Positions 10,470 through 53,065 of a stretch of DNA of 53,065 bases are shown here, piece after piece (the stretch's first letter is position 1; each line of letters begins with the position of its first letter). The position numbers were made by a program, and so were the translations under genes. Below the pieces are notes generated by a model that saw nothing but the letters and a program-made list of their open reading frames with translations, was not told the DNA's origin and did no database searches. Location of the stretch: assembly GCA_031546715.1 (NCBI GenBank), contig JAVBKA010000086.1, forward strand, positions 1 through 53,065, read 5' to 3'. The DNA comes from Oscillospiraceae bacterium (GTDB lineage: Bacteria; Bacillota; Clostridia; Oscillospirales; UBA929).

Positions 10470-10988
10470 ACTGGGATAAGCACTCTAACCAAACTCCCCG
10501 CACTTCCCCCACAAATATATAAATAGGTTGGCACTAAACAAAGTAAATGTTTAGTGCCAATTTGCCGTATTAATGCGAGATTATAATAAACAATGCTTAT
10601 GTAATACCTCAGCTTCTTTCCAATATCTAGGAAATTTTTCTTGAAATAACTAATAGTGCGGATGTTTAGAATCATCTAGCAAATTATCATTTTTAATAGC
10701 TTTCATAACATGACCACGGATAATATCATGTCGATATTGTGGTAACTCTTGTTGTTTTCACTAGAATATGATATAATAACCTCACGGCGTAAACGAAAGC
10801 AGAGCTTTCCACTCCTGAGAGAACATTGAATCACAAAAGTTTTGTCTGCGACAAAAATCAGCTACGCCGTGACGCTTTGCGTCTCTTTTATGATATAGTA
10901 TAAATGGCGAAATGACTTTCAGTTTAATAGTCAGAAGCAGTGTTTCTAAGAGTTTGAATAACTAAAATCCCCCTTGGAGGCGAAAAGA

Positions 10989-11276
10989 ATGCTTTCACAC
11001 GAAATAATTAGCAAACAGCTTGCAAAAGTTGCGTGCTCATACCCTGTAAAAAGATTGGCTTATTTTGGCTCATATGCCACAGGTAAACAAACTGAAGAAA
11101 GCGACTTGGATGTGTTGGTCGAATTCTTAACACCATCAGTTTCCCTCATTACTATTTCGGATATGCGTCTGAAAATTGAGGAGTCACTTAATATTTCAGT
11201 TGACTTAATTCACGCACCATTGCCAAAAGATTCCTTTATAGAAATTGGAAAGGTAGTTTCTGTCTATGAACAGTAG
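10989..11276 (+). CDS. mntA: nucleotidyltransferase-domain antitoxin (MntA-like)
   Basis: Minimal NTase motif FGSYATGKQTEESDLDVLVEF (GS...DxD). GGAGG lies upstream of the ATG at 10989. It overlaps the HEPN gene by 11 nt. Confidence 0.8.
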   Translation: MLSHEIISKQLAKVACSYPVKRLAYFGSYATGKQTEESDLDVLVEFLTPSVSLITISDMRLKIEESLNISVDLIHAPLPKDSFIEIGKVVSVYEQ

Positions 11277-11595
11277 AGAAGATCAAATTATTAGTAAAAT
11301 TCTAGGCGAAGCGACTTTAATAATTGGACTTATTGACGGGCTAGAGCGAGAAGCCTTTCTTACAGATGAGAAGACAAAAAGGGCAGTATGTATGACGTTG
11401 ATTAATATCGGCGAATTAGTTAAACTACTGTCGAGTGATTTTAGAGAATCTCACAGAGAAATCCATTGGAAAGCTATTGCTGGGTTGAGAGATATCACAG
11501 CTCATCGTTATCAGGCACTGCAGATGGGAGACATTTGGGTTACAGCGAAAGAGGATATACCATCATTGATTGAGAAACTTACCCAATTGCAATAA
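11266..11595 (+). CDS. hepT: HEPN-domain (DUF86) toxin (HepT-like)
   Basis: 109 aa helical protein with the Rx4H HEPN motif (LRDITAHRY), immediately downstream of the MNT gene and overlapping it. Confidence 0.8.
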   Translation: MNSREDQIISKILGEATLIIGLIDGLEREAFLTDEKTKRAVCMTLINIGELVKLLSSDFRESHREIHWKAIAGLRDITAHRYQALQMGDIWVTAKEDIPSLIEKLTQLQ

Positions 11596-37693: not shown

Positions 37694-38124
37694 TTGGAGT
37701 CTCCTCCTTCATCAGCGTTCTGGCGTGCAACGAATTTGCATTTAACAGGAAGTTTGTGGGCTGCAAGGCGCATTGCCTCACGAGCTGCATCCTCTGGAAT
37801 TCCTGCCATTTCAAACATTACACGACCGGGCTTTACTACTGCAACCCAGTACTCAGGCGAGCCTTTACCGGAACCCATGCGGGTTTCAGCGGGCTTTTCT
37901 GTAACAGGCTTGTCAGGGAAAATCTTAATCCATACCTGACCACCGCGCTTAGTGGCACGGGTCATGGCAATACGTGCGGCTTCTATTTGCTGGCTTGTAA
38001 TCCAGCATGGCTCTGTAGCCATTAAGCCGAACTCGCCGTGGGATACAGTGTTGCCGCGGGTAGCAATACCCTTCATGCGACCACGATGTACACGACGATA
38101 TTTAACTCTTTTTGGTAAAAGCAC
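37690..38124 (-). CDS. rplP: 50S ribosomal protein L16
   Basis: Sequence [19 protein letters not shown]. Confidence 0.96.
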
Positions 38125-39194
38125 TAGTTGCTACCTCCTTCGTTATGAGGCGCTGCCGGAGCAGGGCTCGTAGCTGGTGCTGCTGACGGGGCATTGTTGT
38201 TGAAGGTTCCTGCCGGACGATTATTGTTAAAGGTTCCTGCTGGACGATTGTTGTTGAAACCGCCACCTGCTGGACGATTGCCGCCGAAGCCACCGCCACC
38301 CGCTGGACGATTGCCGCCAAAGCCGCCTCCGCCTGCTGGACGATTTCCACCAAAGCCGCCACCACCACCTGCTGGACGATTGCCGCCGAAGCCGCCTCCG
38401 CCTGCCGGACGATTGCCGCCGCCACCGTAGCCGCCGCCTGAGCGATTTCCGCCGTATCCGCCCTTGTTGCCGTCTTTATCGTAGCCACCGCGGTCTGGAC
38501 GTTTGTCACGACGCTCTTCGCGTGGACGTGGAGCTTCGATTGTGCGCGGTCCCATACGGTTACCCGCAGTAAGGACTTCGCCTTTATAAATCCAAACCTT
38601 TACGCCGATACGACCATAGGTTGTGGCTGCTTCAGCAAAACCATAGTCAATGTCTGCACGAAGGGTTTGGAGGGGAATTGTACCCTCATGGTAATGCTCT
38701 GAGCGGGCAATTTCTGCGCCGCCTAAACGACCTGAAACTGCAGTTTTGATGCCACGTGCGCCTGCACGCATTGAACGCATCATGCTCTGCTTCATTGCAC
38801 GGCGGAAGCTAATGCGCTTCTCAAGCTGCTGTGCAATATTTTCGGCAACCAACTGAGCGCAAACGTCTGGGGATTTAACCTCGACGATGTTCAGCGCAAC
38901 AGGTTTGCCAATCATTTTTTCAACATCCAAACGGAGCTTTTCAATATCGTTACCGCCGCGACCAATGACAACGCCTGGTCTTGCGCAGTGTACGAAAAGT
39001 CTGACTCTGGTTGAATCTCTCTCGATTTCAATACGGGGAACGCCTGCTGAATAGAGCTTCTTTTTCAGAAATTCTCTAACCTTAAAGTCCTCGACAATTA
39101 AGTCTCCGACCTTGTTGTTTTTAGCATACCAGCGTGAATCCCAGCCTTTTATAACGCCGACGCGGAAGCCGTGTGGATTAACTTTCTGACCCAA
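38124..39194 (-). CDS. rpsC: 30S ribosomal protein S3 with ~140-aa Gly-rich repetitive C-terminal tail
   Basis: Canonical S3 for about 215 aa ([13 protein letters not shown]...), then a Gly-rich tail with [11 protein letters not shown]-like repeats, 356 aa in total. Confidence 0.93.
38205..38460 (-). repeat. 8 tandem 27-36-bp units inside the rpsC 3' region
   Basis: On the + strand the core CCTGC(T/C)GGACGATT recurs at 38209, 38236, 38266, 38299, 38332, 38368 and 38401, with a variant at 38437. Confidence 0.9.
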
Positions 39195-42503: not shown

Positions 42504-42911
42504 TTACAGTTTTATTTCAAACTCAAGACCGGCCGGAAGATCAAGGCTCATCAGCGCTTCCATTGTTTTTTGTGAAGGCTTGATAATATCGATGATTCTC
42601 TTGTGGGTGCGGCGCTCGAATTGTTCGCGGCTATCTTTATACTTATGAACTGCACTGAGAATTGTTATGATTTCCTTTTTTGTCGGAAGGGGAATAGGAC
42701 CTGAAACTCTTGCGCCTGTGCGCTTTGCTGTTTCGACGATGCGCTCTGCGCTTTGGTCGATAAGCTGATGGTCATATGCCTTCAGGCGAATACGGATAAC
42801 TTCTTTCATTTTAGGAGCTGCTGCAGGTGCTGCTGCCTTTGGGGCTACAGGCTTTGTTTCAACTGTTTTGGTTGCCTTTGATTCTTTTTGAGTTGTTTCG
42901 GTTGTTGCCAT
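42504..42911 (-). CDS. rpsJ: 30S ribosomal protein S10 with ~34-aa Lys/Ala/Pro/Thr-rich N-terminal extension
   Basis: Canonical S10 runs from [10 protein letters not shown] onward. A strong AAGGAGG lies 9 nt before the ATG at 42911, and there is no SD before the internal Met. The track ORF start at 43073 is spurious. Confidence 0.85.
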
Positions 42912-43238
42912 GTTTTGCTTCCTCCTTAATATGCTCGGTGAAATCTTTACCGCCTTGCCGTGTGTGTCGCCAAACTTCATAAATTTTGCCGGAACTGACA
43001 AAACTCGTTTTGCCAAAGTTTCCGGCTGACAGAGGCTTAAAATATCTCTCCCGGCCGCCCGATTAACGGACATACTCCACCGAAGTGACCAAATGCCAGA
43101 TGTTCACTGCCCCAGTATAACAAGGACAAGACGAGCCTTGCTAATCAAATTAGCCGCTCAAAGATGAACTCCCAGATTTGCAATCTACGGTTTCATTGCA
43201 TTTTTGCGCACAAATATCCTGTTAGATAAAAATGGCAC
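42912..43238 (-). promoter_or_regulatory. long (~325 nt) 5' leader of the S10 operon
   Basis: Region between the predicted promoter and the rpsJ SD. It contains strong hairpins, for example GCCGGAA...TTCCGGC nested with CAAAAC/GTTTTG around 42984-43025. Confidence 0.45.
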
Positions 43239-43244
43239 TTGATG

Positions 43245-43273
43245 ATAATATCAGTCAAGTGCCCAAATGTCAA
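43245..43273 (-). promoter_or_regulatory. putative S10 operon promoter
   Basis: On the - strand TTGACA (43273-43268), 17-nt spacer, TATTAT (43250-43245), with an A/T-rich UP-like tract upstream. Confidence 0.6.
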
Positions 43274-43302
43274 GAGTTTTTATAAAATTTTTCTGGTTTT
43301 TT
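43268..43302. repeat. left copy of 35-nt direct repeat flanking the AT-rich islet
   Basis: TGTCAAGAGTTTTTATAAAATTTTTCTGGTTTTTT compared with 46681-46715: 32/35 identical by manual alignment. Confidence 0.8.
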
Positions 43303-43453: not shown

Positions 43454-44653
43454 TTATTCACATATTTCTTTTGACAATTTACAAATTGATTCACGTGCTT
43501 CTGCAAGTTCTATGACATTCGCACTTACAGAAAATCTGGTTTTATGCAAGGTAGTGTAAAAATTAGTTAAGTCATTAATATGTGATAAGACAAACTTCGT
43601 AAGCAAAAATTTATTTGCTTCTATTGCATGAATTGTTTGCGCGTTACCTTTTTGCAAAGATGTAAAAAAATAATGAACTGAAAGAAATACTTTCAGTAAC
43701 TTGTTTAACTTAACTTTCAAATCTGGCCAGACACTGTCGGTTTGAAATAGCTTTGCAGTTGTTATTAATTCGGTTATTTCAATAATATCATGAGCCACAT
43801 ATGTATAAGTGTTTTGACTATTTGCACAAACACTAAAATCTATTTTTAGTGTTTGTGCAACACTGCGTAATTCACAATCAATGTCTTTAAGAGACTCAGA
43901 GTACTTTGTTACATTGTTGCCTAAAAAACACTCTTGTTCTAAAATTGTTTGTAAGGCAATTCCTCTTAGATGAGACATTTTTGCAACGCTCTTAGCCACT
44001 GGCACAGTTCCTAAAGAAACATCTCCAAACAAATTTAAAACATTTATTATCTCTTTGCAGGTCTTAGTGGCACATAGCCGTAACCATTTATCTCTATTAT
44101 TGCTTTGCCATCTAACAATAATCTGCATATATAAAAAGAACTTAATCAAATCTTTTTTATGTAGGGCTATCATTGCAAAAAAGGAAATAATTATTAAAGA
44201 AAGCATTCGAGAATCAATATGCACTTCTTCAACTTCTTCAACTTTTTCAATTGAACACAATAACCTTGGTGCATAAACGCAATTATTATATTCAACAATC
44301 AATCTTGTGCATGCGTGGAGAGGTTCTGGCAAACGAAAGCAATATCTAACTTTAAGAATGCTATCGTCTTCTGGAAGACTTTCAGAAATTCTTTCAGAAT
44401 TTTTATTATCATATGATGCAATTTTAGTTATATTTATCAAGCTATCATTCGAAATTTTTTCATTTTTTCCAAATGCTTTGTAAGCCTCTATAATTACTGA
44501 TATCAACTGCATATCAATATTGTAATTACCCGTATTTTTATCATACAAACAATTTTTAAACTCTTTAAACTCATCCTTCGCCAATAAGCAATTATATACT
44601 TCAAAAATACAATAATTAATCATATTGCGCATTAATTCACCAGCTTTATCCAA
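43454..44653 (-). CDS. hypothetical helical protein, partner of the PRTase-like protein
   Basis: 399-codon ORF that begins immediately after the upstream TAA (TTG 44653, or ATG 44632). A/T-rich codons. I recognise no motif. Confidence 0.6.
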   Translation of the reverse strand: MDKAGELMRNMINYCIFEVYNCLLAKDEFKEFKNCLYDKNTGNYNIDMQLISVIIEAYKAFGKNEKISNDSLINITKIASYDNKNSERISESLPEDDSILKVRYCFRLPEPLHACTRLIVEYNNCVYAPRLLCSIEKVEEVEEVHIDSRMLSLIIISFFAMIALHKKDLIKFFLYMQIIVRWQSNNRDKWLRLCATKTCKEIINVLNLFGDVSLGTVPVAKSVAKMSHLRGIALQTILEQECFLGNNVTKYSESLKDIDCELRSVAQTLKIDFSVCANSQNTYTYVAHDIIEITELITTAKLFQTDSVWPDLKVKLNKLLKVFLSVHYFFTSLQKGNAQTIHAIEANKFLLTKFVLSHINDLTNFYTTLHKTRFSVSANVIELAEARESICKLSKEICE

Positions 44654-46486
44654 TTAATTTATCTCTCGTTTATTGATATAGTCGTCAACAAATTCTTGCG
44701 CCTTACAATAATTGTTAAACAATTGTTTATCTTCCTCTATACGTTCACAAAAACTCCTATACTCACCAACACCAAGTGCCTTCCATAGACTCAAAACATC
44801 ACTGATACTCTTGGCATTCTGAGTCCAACTACAAAGTTTCTGAATCATTGAACATGGTTCAGAAATTTGAGCGTTAAGAAAACATTCAGTAAAGGCTGTA
44901 ACATTTCTTTTCAAGTTTTCTAAAGTCCCTGATAAAAGGGCGTATCGAAATATGGCAAAATAATAAACGGGAGCATGCCTCACTGATGAAACATATCCCT
45001 CCCCTGCATAGGCGTCTTTGACAATATACGGCGTATTCTCTCGATAATGTATAGACGCAGAATAAGATGCCCCAGACCTGAGTGTAGTACGCAGTGAAGC
45101 CAATCCGATTGCACTTTTCAGTGCTCTATTATTTCTACATGGAAGTACGTGCAGTTTGAAAAAACTAATCAAATGAATTTTGGGCTTTCCAGCAACTTCA
45201 GTGTTGACCGTTTCTAAAACACGTTTCTCAACAGGAAATAGCATCGATTCAATCTCTTGTTCAATCTCTTGTTCAATCTCTTGCTCAATCTCTTGTTTTT
45301 TGCAAAATTCTGTTAATGGTTTATCTAGCGAAGCCACATTAGCGATATCATTCAACGTAATTTCGTCTATGCCGATAGAATTTTCCTCAAAACTAAAAAA
45401 AGTGCACAAATCGATTGAATGATTATAAAACAATTTCAACTCCGTGCTCAGTTCATTTGGAAAATGGTAAGCTTCATATTCAACATCAAATTGAAACAGG
45501 TCTTGTAAGCACGGCACATCGCTGAACAATCGCTTAGCAACGCGCAATGATAACATATATGCCAATATCTTATGAATTAGCAAAGTTGATTTTTGACTAA
45601 TCAGTTGGTCGTTCAGCAAGCATCGAAAATGAACAAGGGAAAGACAGCTTTCTTCTTCCACGTAGGACAAAAGATTCAATAAACTTTTGCGAGCACGCTC
45701 AAAACTAACTGCGGAAAATATGGAGACCGGAATCAATCTAACATTAAATATATTTTCTTCGCAAAAATACGTTACTCGTATCCCCTCAAATAGCATGTTA
45801 GGCATTTGATTTTCAGATATACTATGAATAATAAAGGAGTTTTCTGCGACATAATCATTGGAAATTGGTATATGGAACTTTTCACATTTCCATGTTTGTT
45901 CATCTATGGTCATGTTGATGGAAGTAAGCTTATCAAACTGCTCTTTTGTCATAGAAGCGCGATAAACAGGCAAATCCATTGAAAAAGGAAGTGATAACGC
46001 ATGAGTTAGCTTCATTGTACGAATTGTAAAATCATGTAAATCAACCTCTGGAACTATACTTGAACAAGTCAATGGTGCGGGAAGTTGGATTAAAGGATTA
46101 AACACGTTACTTACAAGCATAACTGCTGGGGTAATATTCTTAATACCACGTTCCTGTAAAATCATGCATATATCTTTTAAGTGCTTTCCTGTTGACACGG
46201 TGTCGTCTATAACTGTAAAATTCAAATTGACCAAGTGTGTCCAGTCAGTAATTTTATCAATGTACCTGTCACTAAAAACTATAGCATTATTATCTTTTAT
46301 ATACCCACACGACAATGCGATCAAGTATAGGCAAAACCCTTTTCGGGACATAAAAACAAACACATCATGCTCAGTTGCCTTAGCAAAAAGCTGTTTGAAA
46401 AAATCTCTGACCGACTCCGCATAGTCACTGCCTAAAAAACTTCTGAGTAATTCTTCTGACGTAGTTTTTGAAAAATATCCGCTCAT
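44654..46486 (-). CDS. large protein with N-terminal phosphoribosyltransferase-like domain and unknown ~480-aa C-terminal region
   Basis: FTVIDDTVSTGKH resembles the type I PRTase PRPP-binding signature (hydrophobic strand, DD, xxSTG). It is preceded by VFVFMSRKGF, a strand-loop segment consistent with the PRTase fold. AGAGGTG lies 5 nt before the ATG at 46486. Confidence 0.6.
   Translation of the reverse strand: MSGYFSKTTSEELLRSFLGSDYAESVRDFFKQLFAKATEHDVFVFMSRKGFCLYLIALSCGYIKDNNAIVFSDRYIDKITDWTHLVNLNFTVIDDTVSTGKHLKDICMILQERGIKNITPAVMLVSNVFNPLIQLPAPLTCSSIVPEVDLHDFTIRTMKLTHALSLPFSMDLPVYRASMTKEQFDKLTSINMTIDEQTWKCEKFHIPISNDYVAENSFIIHSISENQMPNMLFEGIRVTYFCEENIFNVRLIPVSIFSAVSFERARKSLLNLLSYVEEESCLSLVHFRCLLNDQLISQKSTLLIHKILAYMLSLRVAKRLFSDVPCLQDLFQFDVEYEAYHFPNELSTELKLFYNHSIDLCTFFSFEENSIGIDEITLNDIANVASLDKPLTEFCKKQEIEQEIEQEIEQEIESMLFPVEKRVLETVNTEVAGKPKIHLISFFKLHVLPCRNNRALKSAIGLASLRTTLRSGASYSASIHYRENTPYIVKDAYAGEGYVSSVRHAPVYYFAIFRYALLSGTLENLKRNVTAFTECFLNAQISEPCSMIQKLCSWTQNAKSISDVLSLWKALGVGEYRSFCERIEEDKQLFNNYCKAQEFVDDYINKREIN
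45248..45295 (-). repeat. 4 x 12-bp in-frame tandem repeat (QEIE)4
   Basis: On the + strand TTCAATCTCTTG occurs three times plus one variant (CTCAATCTCTTG). Confidence 0.9.
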
Positions 46487-46526
46487 AAATGCACCTCTGA
46501 TATTTTGTGAGTACAATTGGCTTCCA

Positions 46527-46589
46527 TTTCATCTTATGCTGGAAAGCACACAAAGATGAAACACAAACCACCGCACATTGCTGTGCGGT
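46527..46589 (-). promoter_or_regulatory. structured 5' leader of the islet operon (two hairpins)
   Basis: Hairpin ACCGCACA-ttgc-TGTGCGGT (46570-46589) and a 9-bp perfect stem TTTCATCTT...AAGATGAAA (46527-46561), both between the promoter and the SD. Confidence 0.45.
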
Positions 46590-46657: not shown

Positions 46658-46686
46658 AGTATAGTACTCAAACGTCCATTTGTCAA
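46658..46686 (-). promoter_or_regulatory. putative promoter of the islet operon
   Basis: On the - strand TTGACA (46686-46681), 17-nt spacer, TATACT (46663-46658). The palindrome AGTACTATA-atag-TATAGTACT (46647-46668) overlaps the -10. Confidence 0.6.
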
Positions 46687-46715
46687 TAGTTTTTATTAAA
46701 TTTTTCTTGTTTTTT
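46681..46715. repeat. right copy of 35-nt direct repeat flanking the AT-rich islet
   Basis: TGTCAATAGTTTTTATTAAATTTTTCTTGTTTTTT compared with 43268-43302: 32/35 identical. Confidence 0.8.
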
Positions 46716-52033: not shown

Positions 52034-52558
52034 ATGAACAATTTACCGCAAAGAAAACACGTTCGATTAAAAAATTACGATTACGGCGACAATGGCGCAT
52101 ATTTTATAACGTTCTGCATTAAAGATAGGCACGAATTGTTAGGCGCGCTTGTTGTAGGGAACGGCGTCCTCGACGTTCCGAAGGTTGAGTTATCTGAACT
52201 TGGAGAGATTGTTGAAAAGCAAATTATTGAGCTGGATAATCATTATGACCATGTGGATATTAATAAATACATCATTATGCCTAATCATGTGCATATGATT
52301 GTGATTGTGAAAGACCAAAAAAGCGGTGTGTCGGGGACGCAGAGCGGTGTGTCGGGGACGCCACACCCTACAAATGCGGTTATTCCATCGTTACTTTCTA
52401 CGCTTAAACGGTTCACAAATAAAAGAATTGGTTATTCAATATGGCAATCCTCTTACCATGATCATATTATCCGTGACGAATTAGATTACCAAAACCATTG
52501 GCAATACATTGACGAAAACCCGGCTAAATGGGCAGCAGATAAATATTATGAAGGTTGA
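52034..52558 (+). CDS. IS200/IS605-type Y1 (HUH) transposase-like protein, RayT-like
   Basis: 174 aa with the HUH motif MPNHVHMIV and the catalytic-Tyr region WQSSYHDHIIRDE, a single-domain size. AAGGAGAAG SD. Confidence 0.8.
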   Translation: MNNLPQRKHVRLKNYDYGDNGAYFITFCIKDRHELLGALVVGNGVLDVPKVELSELGEIVEKQIIELDNHYDHVDINKYIIMPNHVHMIVIVKDQKSGVSGTQSGVSGTPHPTNAVIPSLLSTLKRFTNKRIGYSIWQSSYHDHIIRDELDYQNHWQYIDENPAKWAADKYYEG

Positions 52559-52611: not shown

Positions 52612-53065
52612 GATTCAAGGCGGGGACGTAAAGCGGTGTGTAAGGACGCGGGGCGGTGTGTCGAGGACGCCACACCCTACACGTGCGGTTATGCTTTCTA
52701 ATACGAATTGTTGGGCGCGGTTGTTGTAGGGAACGGCGTCCTCGACGTTCCGAAGGTTGAGATATCTGAACTTGGGGAGATTGTCGAAAAGCAGATTATT
52801 GAACTGGATAATCATTATGCCAAATCACGTGTATGTGATTGTGGTTGTGAAAGACAAAAAGGCGGTGTGTCGGGGACGCGGGGCGGTGTGTCGGGGACGC
52901 CACACCCTACATGTGCGGTTATCCCGTTGTTGCTATCTAAGGCGTTGGGAACGGTTGTTGTAGGGAACGGCGTCCTCGACGTTCCGATGGTTGAGTTATC
53001 TGAACTTGGAGAGATTGTCGAAAAGCAGAAGACAAAAGAGCGGTGTGTCGAGGACGCCACACCCT
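52612..53065 (+). pseudogene. array of decayed partial copies of the internal part of the RayT-like gene (runs off the window)
   Basis: 52701-52955 is collinear with about 52130-52420, with a 31-bp deletion between ATCATTATG repeats. 52954-53065 restarts the same segment with a larger deletion. 52612-52700 repeats the GGTGTGTCG(G/A)GGACGCCACACC module. Confidence 0.75.

Follow-up and report, generated by a model that had tools for sequence, protein, structure and literature searches.

A rare phosphoribosyltransferase-like gene and its orphan partner in a low-GC island of an Oscillospiraceae contig, a candidate conflict module

Phosphoribosyltransferase (PRTase) effectors, such as ShosT, the effector of type III-A retrons, PsyrT and the PRTase of Ophion, are a small and recently characterised class of bacterial immune enzymes, and PsyrT, ShosT, the retron effectors and Ophion OpnC have been reported in one PRTase clade. 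ShosT is a protein of 424 amino acids (aa) with an N-terminal pyrophosphatase (PPase)-like domain and a C-terminal PRTase; binding of phosphoribosyl pyrophosphate (PRPP) is indispensable for its toxicity, which is lost in the D331A/D332A mutant. Activation of Retron-Eco11 depletes PRPP. Ophion consists of three genes (radical SAM, PHP and the PRTase OpnC), and its PRTase works with nucleotide-modifying enzymes without abortive infection, while for the Ter systems it has been proposed that PRTases, together with HAD phosphoesterases, make signalling nucleoside derivatives. Here we describe a pair of adjacent genes, called A and B, on contig JAVBKA010000086.1 of an Oscillospiraceae bacterium (assembly GCA_031546715.1), whose whole stretch of 53,065 nucleotides (nt) is the window of this analysis. 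The N-terminal ~165 residues of the A protein adopt the type I PRTase fold and keep the PRPP loop intact, genes A and B form an operon, and the foreign A-B cassette most likely belongs to a branch of PRTase-based phage-defence or toxin modules that is rare and, among the systems compared by sequence, undescribed. The two genes are:

44654-46486, minus strand: gene A, encoding 610 aa, with a type I PRTase-like domain at the N-terminus followed by a family-conserved region of ~445 aa
43454-44653, minus strand: gene B, 399 aa, starting with TTG immediately after the TAA stop of A (an ATG at 44632 is an alternative start)

Gene A is an intact open reading frame (ORF) with an ATG start and a GAGGTG Shine-Dalgarno sequence at 46492-46497, and the same methionine is used by 54 of 55 homologues. 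An earlier reading of this DNA from its letters only (the sequence-only reading) had placed a protein of about 610 aa at 44654-46486, and both the coordinates and the length turned out to be exact, the start being kept in homologues; the strand, which was not stated there, is minus. What it described of gene A is confirmed and its interpretation is partly supported by the analysis below; the operonic partner gene and the island structure were overlooked.

The sequence-only reading had assigned residues around 40-135 to a type I PRTase core, naming profile searches and structure prediction as checks and the lack of a significant PRTase profile match as an argument against the assignment. We searched the A protein alone against Pfam, NCBIfam and PADLOC, and it turned out that nothing matched even at E<=10, including the Pfam families Pribosyltran and PRTase_2. 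PHROGs and the PDB sequences gave no match to the A protein alone either, nor did the ShosT, retron PRTase_III-A and PRTase-CE models, and the single-sequence AlphaFold model was unusable, with a predicted local distance difference test score (pLDDT) of 34. At face value this tells against the domain call, since the single-sequence searches are empty; the family-level evidence reverses it.

To collect the family, an exhaustive phmmer (HMMER) search with the A protein was run on 1.84 billion representative proteins, which gave 55 distant homologues of ~600 aa. The closest one, P0001, has E=1.5e-90 and 34-36% identity over residues 6-584, and its alignment over this range gave E=3e-101. The other 54 have E-values of 1e-15 to 1e-4, are mostly 590-700 aa long and are aligned over at least residues 10-350. 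When the 56 family members were scanned one by one, 21 matched Pfam Pribosyltran (best 6.4e-8), nine matched PRTase_2 weakly and four matched PRTase-CE weakly; the PADLOC ShosT model was matched weakly by 21 of 56, and the retron PRTase_III-A models weakly by several. Searched against the PDB, the family profile matched PurF (8e-8), PRPP synthetase (2e-6) and purine PRTases (~1e-5), with every alignment at the PRPP loop.

Structure prediction, the other check, did find the PRTase match. With the family alignment, AlphaFold gave a model of pLDDT 84.9 and predicted template modelling score (pTM) 0.87, with pLDDT >90 over residues 10-190, which contains a Rossmann-like core of five parallel strands flanked by helices. 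In Foldseek, the top 50 PDB matches of the full model were all type I PRTases (HGPRT, HPRT, PyrR) at probability 1.0, with 134-166 aligned columns and template modelling (TM) scores of 0.34-0.56 normalised to the target, and the BFVD viral library returned viral PRTases. From the family profile, the motif conservation, AlphaFold and Foldseek together, the N-terminal PRTase fold is therefore concluded. The core assigned by the sequence-only reading is thus right, and it extends in fact over residues ~35-165 by the PDB profile matches, the Pfam and PADLOC matches of single members, AlphaFold and Foldseek. Gene A illustrates that a correct domain call may wrongly appear "refuted" when profiles are searched with one sequence alone. 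The parts of the domain are:

45992-46384, minus strand: PRTase core, residues ~35-165, with strands 41-45, 69-72, 89-97, 117-126 and 140-145 and the intervening helices, from Foldseek, BFVD and the family profile
46336-46365, minus strand: strand 1 and putative pyrophosphate (PPi) loop DVFVFMSRKG, residues 41-50, with R48 and K49, from conservation, the loop being placed by topology
46252-46272, minus strand: S72-D73-R74...K78 motif, putative start of the flexible loop, from conservation
46181-46222, minus strand: PRPP-binding loop NFTVIDDTVSTGKH, residues 89-102, with the D94-D95 acidic pair, from family conservation, the PDB profile alignments being centred here

The near-invariant positions of the 56-sequence alignment include R48, S72, R74, D94, D95, G100 and P173, and the mean pairwise identity between subfamilies is ~17%. 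Residues 90-100 of A (FTVIDDTVSTG) carry the hydrophobic strand, the acidic pair and the [ST]-[ST]-G turn of a PRPP loop, with D94 conserved in 53, D95 in 55 and G100 in 51 of the 56 sequences. The score of 10/13 positions given earlier to the classical PRPP signature (a PROSITE-type pattern) was reproduced at NFTVIDDTVSTGKH, but the score alone is not significant, as 16.5% of 5,000 shuffles reach >=10/13; at least 10/13 is also scored in eight other translated stretches of the window (reading-frame segments of >=100 aa, not necessarily genes). The motif of gene A is regarded as real because D94, D95 and G100 are conserved in the family and a strand-loop-helix is predicted around it. Besides, the segment VFVFMSRKGF, read earlier as a strand and loop, is present as residues 42-51, with a strand predicted at 41-45. 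After strand 1, R48 is conserved in 51 of 55 sequences and K49 in 43, with R in 10 more; after strand 2 come S72 (51 of 55), D73 (46), R74 (53) and K78 (42). By the topology of the model, these are positions where the PPi and flexible loops are expected, and the conserved basic and polar residues may belong to these two loops.

The remainder of the protein was also analysed, and its features are as follows:

44657-45991, minus strand: residues 166-610, made up of a beta-rich module at 175-261, then a helical region, a beta-hairpin at 473-494 and helices at the C-terminus
44999-45004, minus strand: G495-E496, in the near-invariant motif GE[NG]S (G in 50 of 51, E in 49 of 51)
45248-45295, minus strand: four tandem 12-nt repeats inside gene A, encoding (EIEQ)x4, beside the low-confidence segment of the model

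The model is confident over residues 166-610 except for 368-386 and 427-431, with pLDDT 46-56 for residues 370-400; the (EIEQ)x4 repeat is not present in P0001. Family-wide conserved positions are P167, P173, W199, P253, K/R306 and Y310. As modelled, residues 166-610 are thus a confidently folded part of a full-length family with near-invariant residues of its own, and gene A shows the marks of that family, having P173, W199, P253 and G495-E496 and being followed by a partner gene in the same direction. When the PDB was searched with the full-length profile, no non-PRTase match to this region was found at E<0.07, nor was there one among the Foldseek matches listed. The earlier remark that the rest of the protein has no recognisable motif held in every library searched, the region comprising ~445 aa instead of ~480, and this part could be the sensor or regulatory module suggested there. 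Some family members are longer, and fusions of A with B were ruled out for them, as their C-terminal extensions match no partner.

The A protein could alternatively be a non-catalytic sensor of PRPP or nucleotides, of the PyrR or PurR type, which gates an activity in the C-terminal ~445 aa or in B; the near-invariant G495-E496 could then be the C-terminal active site. In line with this, the PRTase domain of A is so divergent that no PRTase hidden Markov model (HMM) detects it, the last position of the PRPP signature is H102 in place of the canonical Thr, and the Foldseek matches include PyrR regulators. We nevertheless hold a sensor to be improbable, considering that near-invariant charged residues occur in all three putative PRPP-contacting loops across ~17% identity, more than binding alone usually needs, and that the C-terminal region has no recognisable catalytic fold.

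For gene B, the TTG start is favoured from sequence comparison because the N-terminal "MD.A.EL" is common to the partner of P0001. Searched against 5.8 billion proteins, B matched only itself, and Pfam, PADLOC, NCBIfam, PHROGs and the PDB gave no match. It is homologous to the gene downstream of P0001 (z=12-13 against shuffles). A transmembrane or pore-forming role of B was ruled out, since no hydrophobic segment is consistent across homologues.

We examined 15 distinct loci with family members, 11 of which have gene calls. In every informative locus the PRTase gene is followed by a co-directional gene; where gene calls exist, the two genes overlap by up to 32 nt or lie up to 241 nt apart. The partner is a short protein without Pfam match in eight of the 15 loci (217-424 aa, and a 79-aa fragment where one contig ends), and a protein of ~1,085-1,122 aa matching Pfam HD-CE (E=1e-36 to 1e-39) in five. 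Four of the five HD-CE partners also match HATPase_c_3 weakly, and the one searched against the PDB matches Hsp90/TRAP1 ATPase domains; their PRTases form a sister subfamily of A (P0005, P0008, P0019, L016, L019). Of the two loci left, one contig is too short to tell, and the other has an IS607-type element directly after the PRTase gene. In that HD-CE-type relative (L018, 7909-9700) the IS607-like element, composed of a MerR-resolvase and TnpB/OrfB_IS605, takes the place where the partner gene sits in other loci.

Further homologous partner pairs were found between L011 and L009 (z=15-18) and between L005 and L008 (z=12), with weaker links at z ~5. Profile-profile comparison detected no relation of the short partners to the HD-CE proteins, or of either to the C-terminal half of A, all hhalign probabilities being <1.5% (for example, 0.3% for partner group g1 against HD-CE). 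In the identity matrix of the A proteins the nearest neighbour has the same partner type in 12 of 12 cases, with identities of 23.5-42% within groups and <=22.2% between groups. Because of this agreement, the PRTase gene and its partner are, by sequence identity, inherited and diversified together. Short partners diverge faster than A (23-25% vs 32-36% identity), but HD-CE partners do not.

The partner types raise another possibility, in which A is a synthase of a signal or metabolite that turns PRPP into a nucleoside- or nucleotide-like small molecule, with the partner as receptor, effector or degrading enzyme; the pair would still be a conflict system, with A not being the toxin. The pairing of the sister subfamily with an HD phosphohydrolase-family protein fits a division of labour in which one gene makes a nucleotide and the other hydrolyses or senses it, PRTase_2 is the family matched weakly by nine of the 56 members, and there are precedents in the Ter PRTases with their HAD phosphoesterases and in the Ophion PRTase, which acts with nucleotide-modifying enzymes and without abortive infection. 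We consider such a synthase unlikely. Gene B gave no HD-CE match and has no recognisable HD, nucleotide-binding or effector domain, no acceptor-base pocket could be identified in A, and the two characterised defence PRTases act via PRPP binding or depletion instead of signalling.

The comparison with described systems can now be made. A-B resembles ShosTA in being a two-gene module whose enzymatic part has a type I PRTase domain with a DD PRPP loop, at which the ShosT model weakly matches relatives of A. However, the PRTase of A is N-terminal and followed by ~445 aa without a PPase-like domain, whereas that of ShosT is C-terminal, and B is not DprA-like (no Pfam, PADLOC, NCBIfam or PDB match), unlike ShosA. 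Type III-A retrons such as Retron-Eco11 share a PRTase-like effector of a defence system, and PRPP depletion is the mechanism that we propose for A; they differ in that no reverse transcriptase or non-coding RNA (ncRNA) was found near gene A or in the related loci examined. Near gene A there is no reverse transcriptase ORF, and Rfam matches only a distant tRNA, though Rfam may not hold every retron ncRNA. With no reverse transcriptase gene and no ncRNA, a retron arrangement was ruled out.

With the Pfam families PRTase-CE (PF24390) and HD-CE (PF24391), the likeness is that the sister subfamily of A is followed by the ~1,100-aa protein with HD-CE and an Hsp90/TRAP1-like ATPase. The best relative examined individually reaches 17.8 bits against the 27-bit gathering score of PRTase-CE, however, the best family E-value is 5.9e-4, and gene B is not HD-CE. 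We found no publication describing PRTase-CE or HD-CE, and the branch with HD partners may be described beyond the literature searched. PsyrTA/RqlHI is likewise a PRTase-domain defence or toxin-antitoxin (TA) system, and one relative of A matches the PsyrT model weakly, but the match lies at the C-terminal end of the 689-position model, and the RecQ-like helicase fusion that we read in PsyrT is not seen in A or its neighbours. As for Ophion, no radical SAM or PHP genes stand beside A. A-B was therefore ruled out as a ShosTA, PsyrTA, retron or Ophion system by the HMM misses, the architecture, the partner and the neighbours. The best-supported comparison is that A-B would work most like the ShosT or retron III-A PRTases while being a member of neither.

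Housekeeping type I PRTases and related proteins (HGPRT/HPRT, APRT, PurF, PRPP synthetase, PyrR) share the core fold and the PRPP loop with A. They differ from it in that A has 10-18% identity to them, no canonical hood domain, an extra module of 445 aa, an operonic orphan partner and an island location. The ~600-aa proteins might even be a new class of PRPP-dependent enzymes, in which the conserved C-terminal module of 445 aa, with its invariant GE motif, replaces the nucleobase "hood" and presents a non-canonical acceptor, with the hypervariable partner as a phage-sensing specificity subunit. Possible acceptors would be macromolecules, namely DNA, RNA or protein of a phage, or else a compound from which a signalling nucleotide is made. 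We regard this as distinctly unlikely; if true, it would mean a previously undescribed immune chemistry instead of simple PRPP depletion.

Several observations concern where the cassette and its relatives are found. The A-B patch has a GC content of 31-37% vs ~47% for the contig, and it is flanked by a P-type ATPase gene and the S10 ribosomal-protein operon. The elements around it are:

46661-46715, minus strand: upstream copy of a 55-nt direct repeat (promoter core), bounding the island upstream of A
46658-46686, minus strand: putative near-consensus sigma-70-type promoter TTGACA-17-TATACT upstream of A, by an 11/12 consensus match only
46570-46589, minus strand: terminator-like hairpin ACCGCACAGCAATGTGCGGT with a T-rich tail, lying after the upstream promoter copy and ahead of the A start codon, from sequence
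43248-43302, minus strand: second copy of the 55-nt direct repeat, on the downstream side, forming the S10-operon promoter (TTGACA-17-TATTAT) before rpsJ and bounding the island

The two 55-nt repeats are 80% identical and lie 3,413 nt apart, one on either side of the A-B island. Both copies form the core of a near-consensus promoter, with a UP-like A/T tract, TTGACA, a 17-nt spacer and TATTAT or TATACT, and the leaders downstream of the two copies are unrelated. Because promoter-core repeats bracket the island and the sequences downstream of them are unrelated, the cassette appears to have been inserted at a ribosomal-protein promoter or to have duplicated it. The hairpin at 46570-46589 may attenuate the cassette, or it may be a terminator displaced from the P-type ATPase gene. 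This ATPase neighbour found only a distant Sphingobium match in 185,579 species-representative genomes. The ribosomal proteins L2, S19, L23 and L4 of the contig each stand alone in their 90%-identity cluster in a set of ~15 billion proteins, and the host is for this reason a very poorly sampled lineage.

Among the neighbours of the relatives are phage-type integrases, AbiEi/AbiEii, ParE, MazE, SocA_Panacea and ParAB, and in one relative the protein carries a fused PNP_UDP_1 domain, which is matched by PADLOC defence-effector models. For instance, L012 (1-13923), an apparent integrative element, carries the family member P0022 and a 424-aa partner with an integrase, an HTH_17 excisionase-like gene, AbiEi/AbiEii, an HD protein and ParAB. 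Family members are rare, and almost every cluster is a singleton from a metagenome. No relative of gene A was found in the 185,579 species-representative genomes, the subfamily of A was not found in the metagenome or IMG/VR scans, two other subfamilies were not found in the viral scans, and tblastn of gene A against phage and plasmid records gave no match. The low GC content, the bounding 55-nt repeat and the relatives beside integrases, abortive infection (Abi) and TA genes argue for a foreign and mobile character of the cassette.

This setting could also suit a housekeeping or biosynthetic pair unrelated to conflict, for example one that phosphoribosylates a precursor of a cell-surface polymer or serves an unusual salvage route, as glycosyltransferase and polysaccharide genes surround at least three of the related loci, and A-B itself is flanked by the P-type ATPase gene and the S10 operon and preceded by a copied ribosomal-protein promoter. 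Polysaccharide loci, however, are themselves variable hotspots. The low-GC island, the extreme rarity and the patchy distribution also speak against a housekeeping pair, as do the hypervariable partner, the integrase, Abi and TA neighbours and the fusion to a defence-type PNP effector, and no transmembrane segments like those of the lipid-linked PRTase Rv3806c were seen. A biosynthetic role is in our judgement very improbable.

Taking these results together, we propose with moderate confidence that A and B are a horizontally acquired two-gene conflict module, either for anti-phage abortive infection or similar to a TA system, with A as a PRPP-consuming effector and B as its regulator or sensor. 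The reading is supported by the abutting gene B, the conserved order of A and partner, the 12/12 match between subfamily and partner, the sporadic and rare distribution and the PNP_UDP_1 fusion. As the enzymatic component, A would bind PRPP in its PRTase domain via the DD/TG loop, R48/K49 and S72-D73-R74/K78. When active, it would consume PRPP, either by transferring phosphoribose to some acceptor or by futile turnover, and nucleotide synthesis would be starved, as in ShosT and Retron-Eco11. Depletion of PRPP or nucleotides by an effector, an idea already present in the sequence-only reading, is plausible, given the analogy with these two systems and the genomic context. The ~445-aa C-terminal module may pack onto the PRTase domain and control access to the active site or the choice of acceptor, and B may be a co-evolving regulator, that is, a sensor, a specificity subunit or an antitoxin. 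What the data show directly are the ORFs, the island, the PRTase fold with its conserved motifs, the order and joint diversification of A and its partner, and the mobile-element and TA neighbourhoods; catalysis, PRPP depletion, toxicity, the role of B and any defence phenotype are inferred.

A number of points weigh against this proposal. A PRPP sensor without catalytic activity would have retained the conserved binding residues just as well. The last signature position, H102, is S, H or T across the family in place of T. The A protein alone matches no PRTase, defence or phage HMM, and the PADLOC matches of the family span only the PRPP loop, so that "defence PRTase" is no better supported than "PRTase". 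The partner groups have no detectable mutual homology. The cassette has housekeeping genes on both sides here instead of lying in a recognisable defence island. At least three loci of the HD-CE type are inside polysaccharide gene clusters, which might indicate a biosynthetic role, and the scans found no family member on viral contigs or plasmids.

Some other features of the window were also noted. A second low-GC patch (35.5% GC) at 10974-11595 on the plus strand encodes an MntA/HepT-type TA pair, in which the NTP_transf_2 gene (8.9e-11) overlaps that of a HepT-like HEPN RNase (2.8e-20). The S3 ORF (38124-39194, minus strand) ends in a long Gly-rich repeat tail, and the S10 ORF (42504-43073, minus strand) has ~90 extra N-terminal residues before its Pfam S10 match (94-188), which may reflect the start codon chosen by the ORF caller. 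On the plus strand, a 174-aa ORF at 52034-52558, without Pfam match at E<=1e-3, and a nearby ORF fragment at 52757-52963 have a common motif, "IMPNHVH/YVIV", and short repeats (GVSGT; AVCRGR); the motif presumably resembles that of REP-associated or IS200-type tyrosine transposases.

In conclusion, the family of A adds to the immune PRTases an architecture with a large conserved module for which no fold match was obtained, whose strictly co-diversifying partners range from ~400-aa orphans to proteins with HD and Hsp90-like ATPase domains. If the module is functional, the known uses of PRPP chemistry against invaders would be broadened, and the pair would provide a tractable two-gene system for how the swapping of partners retargets one effector.

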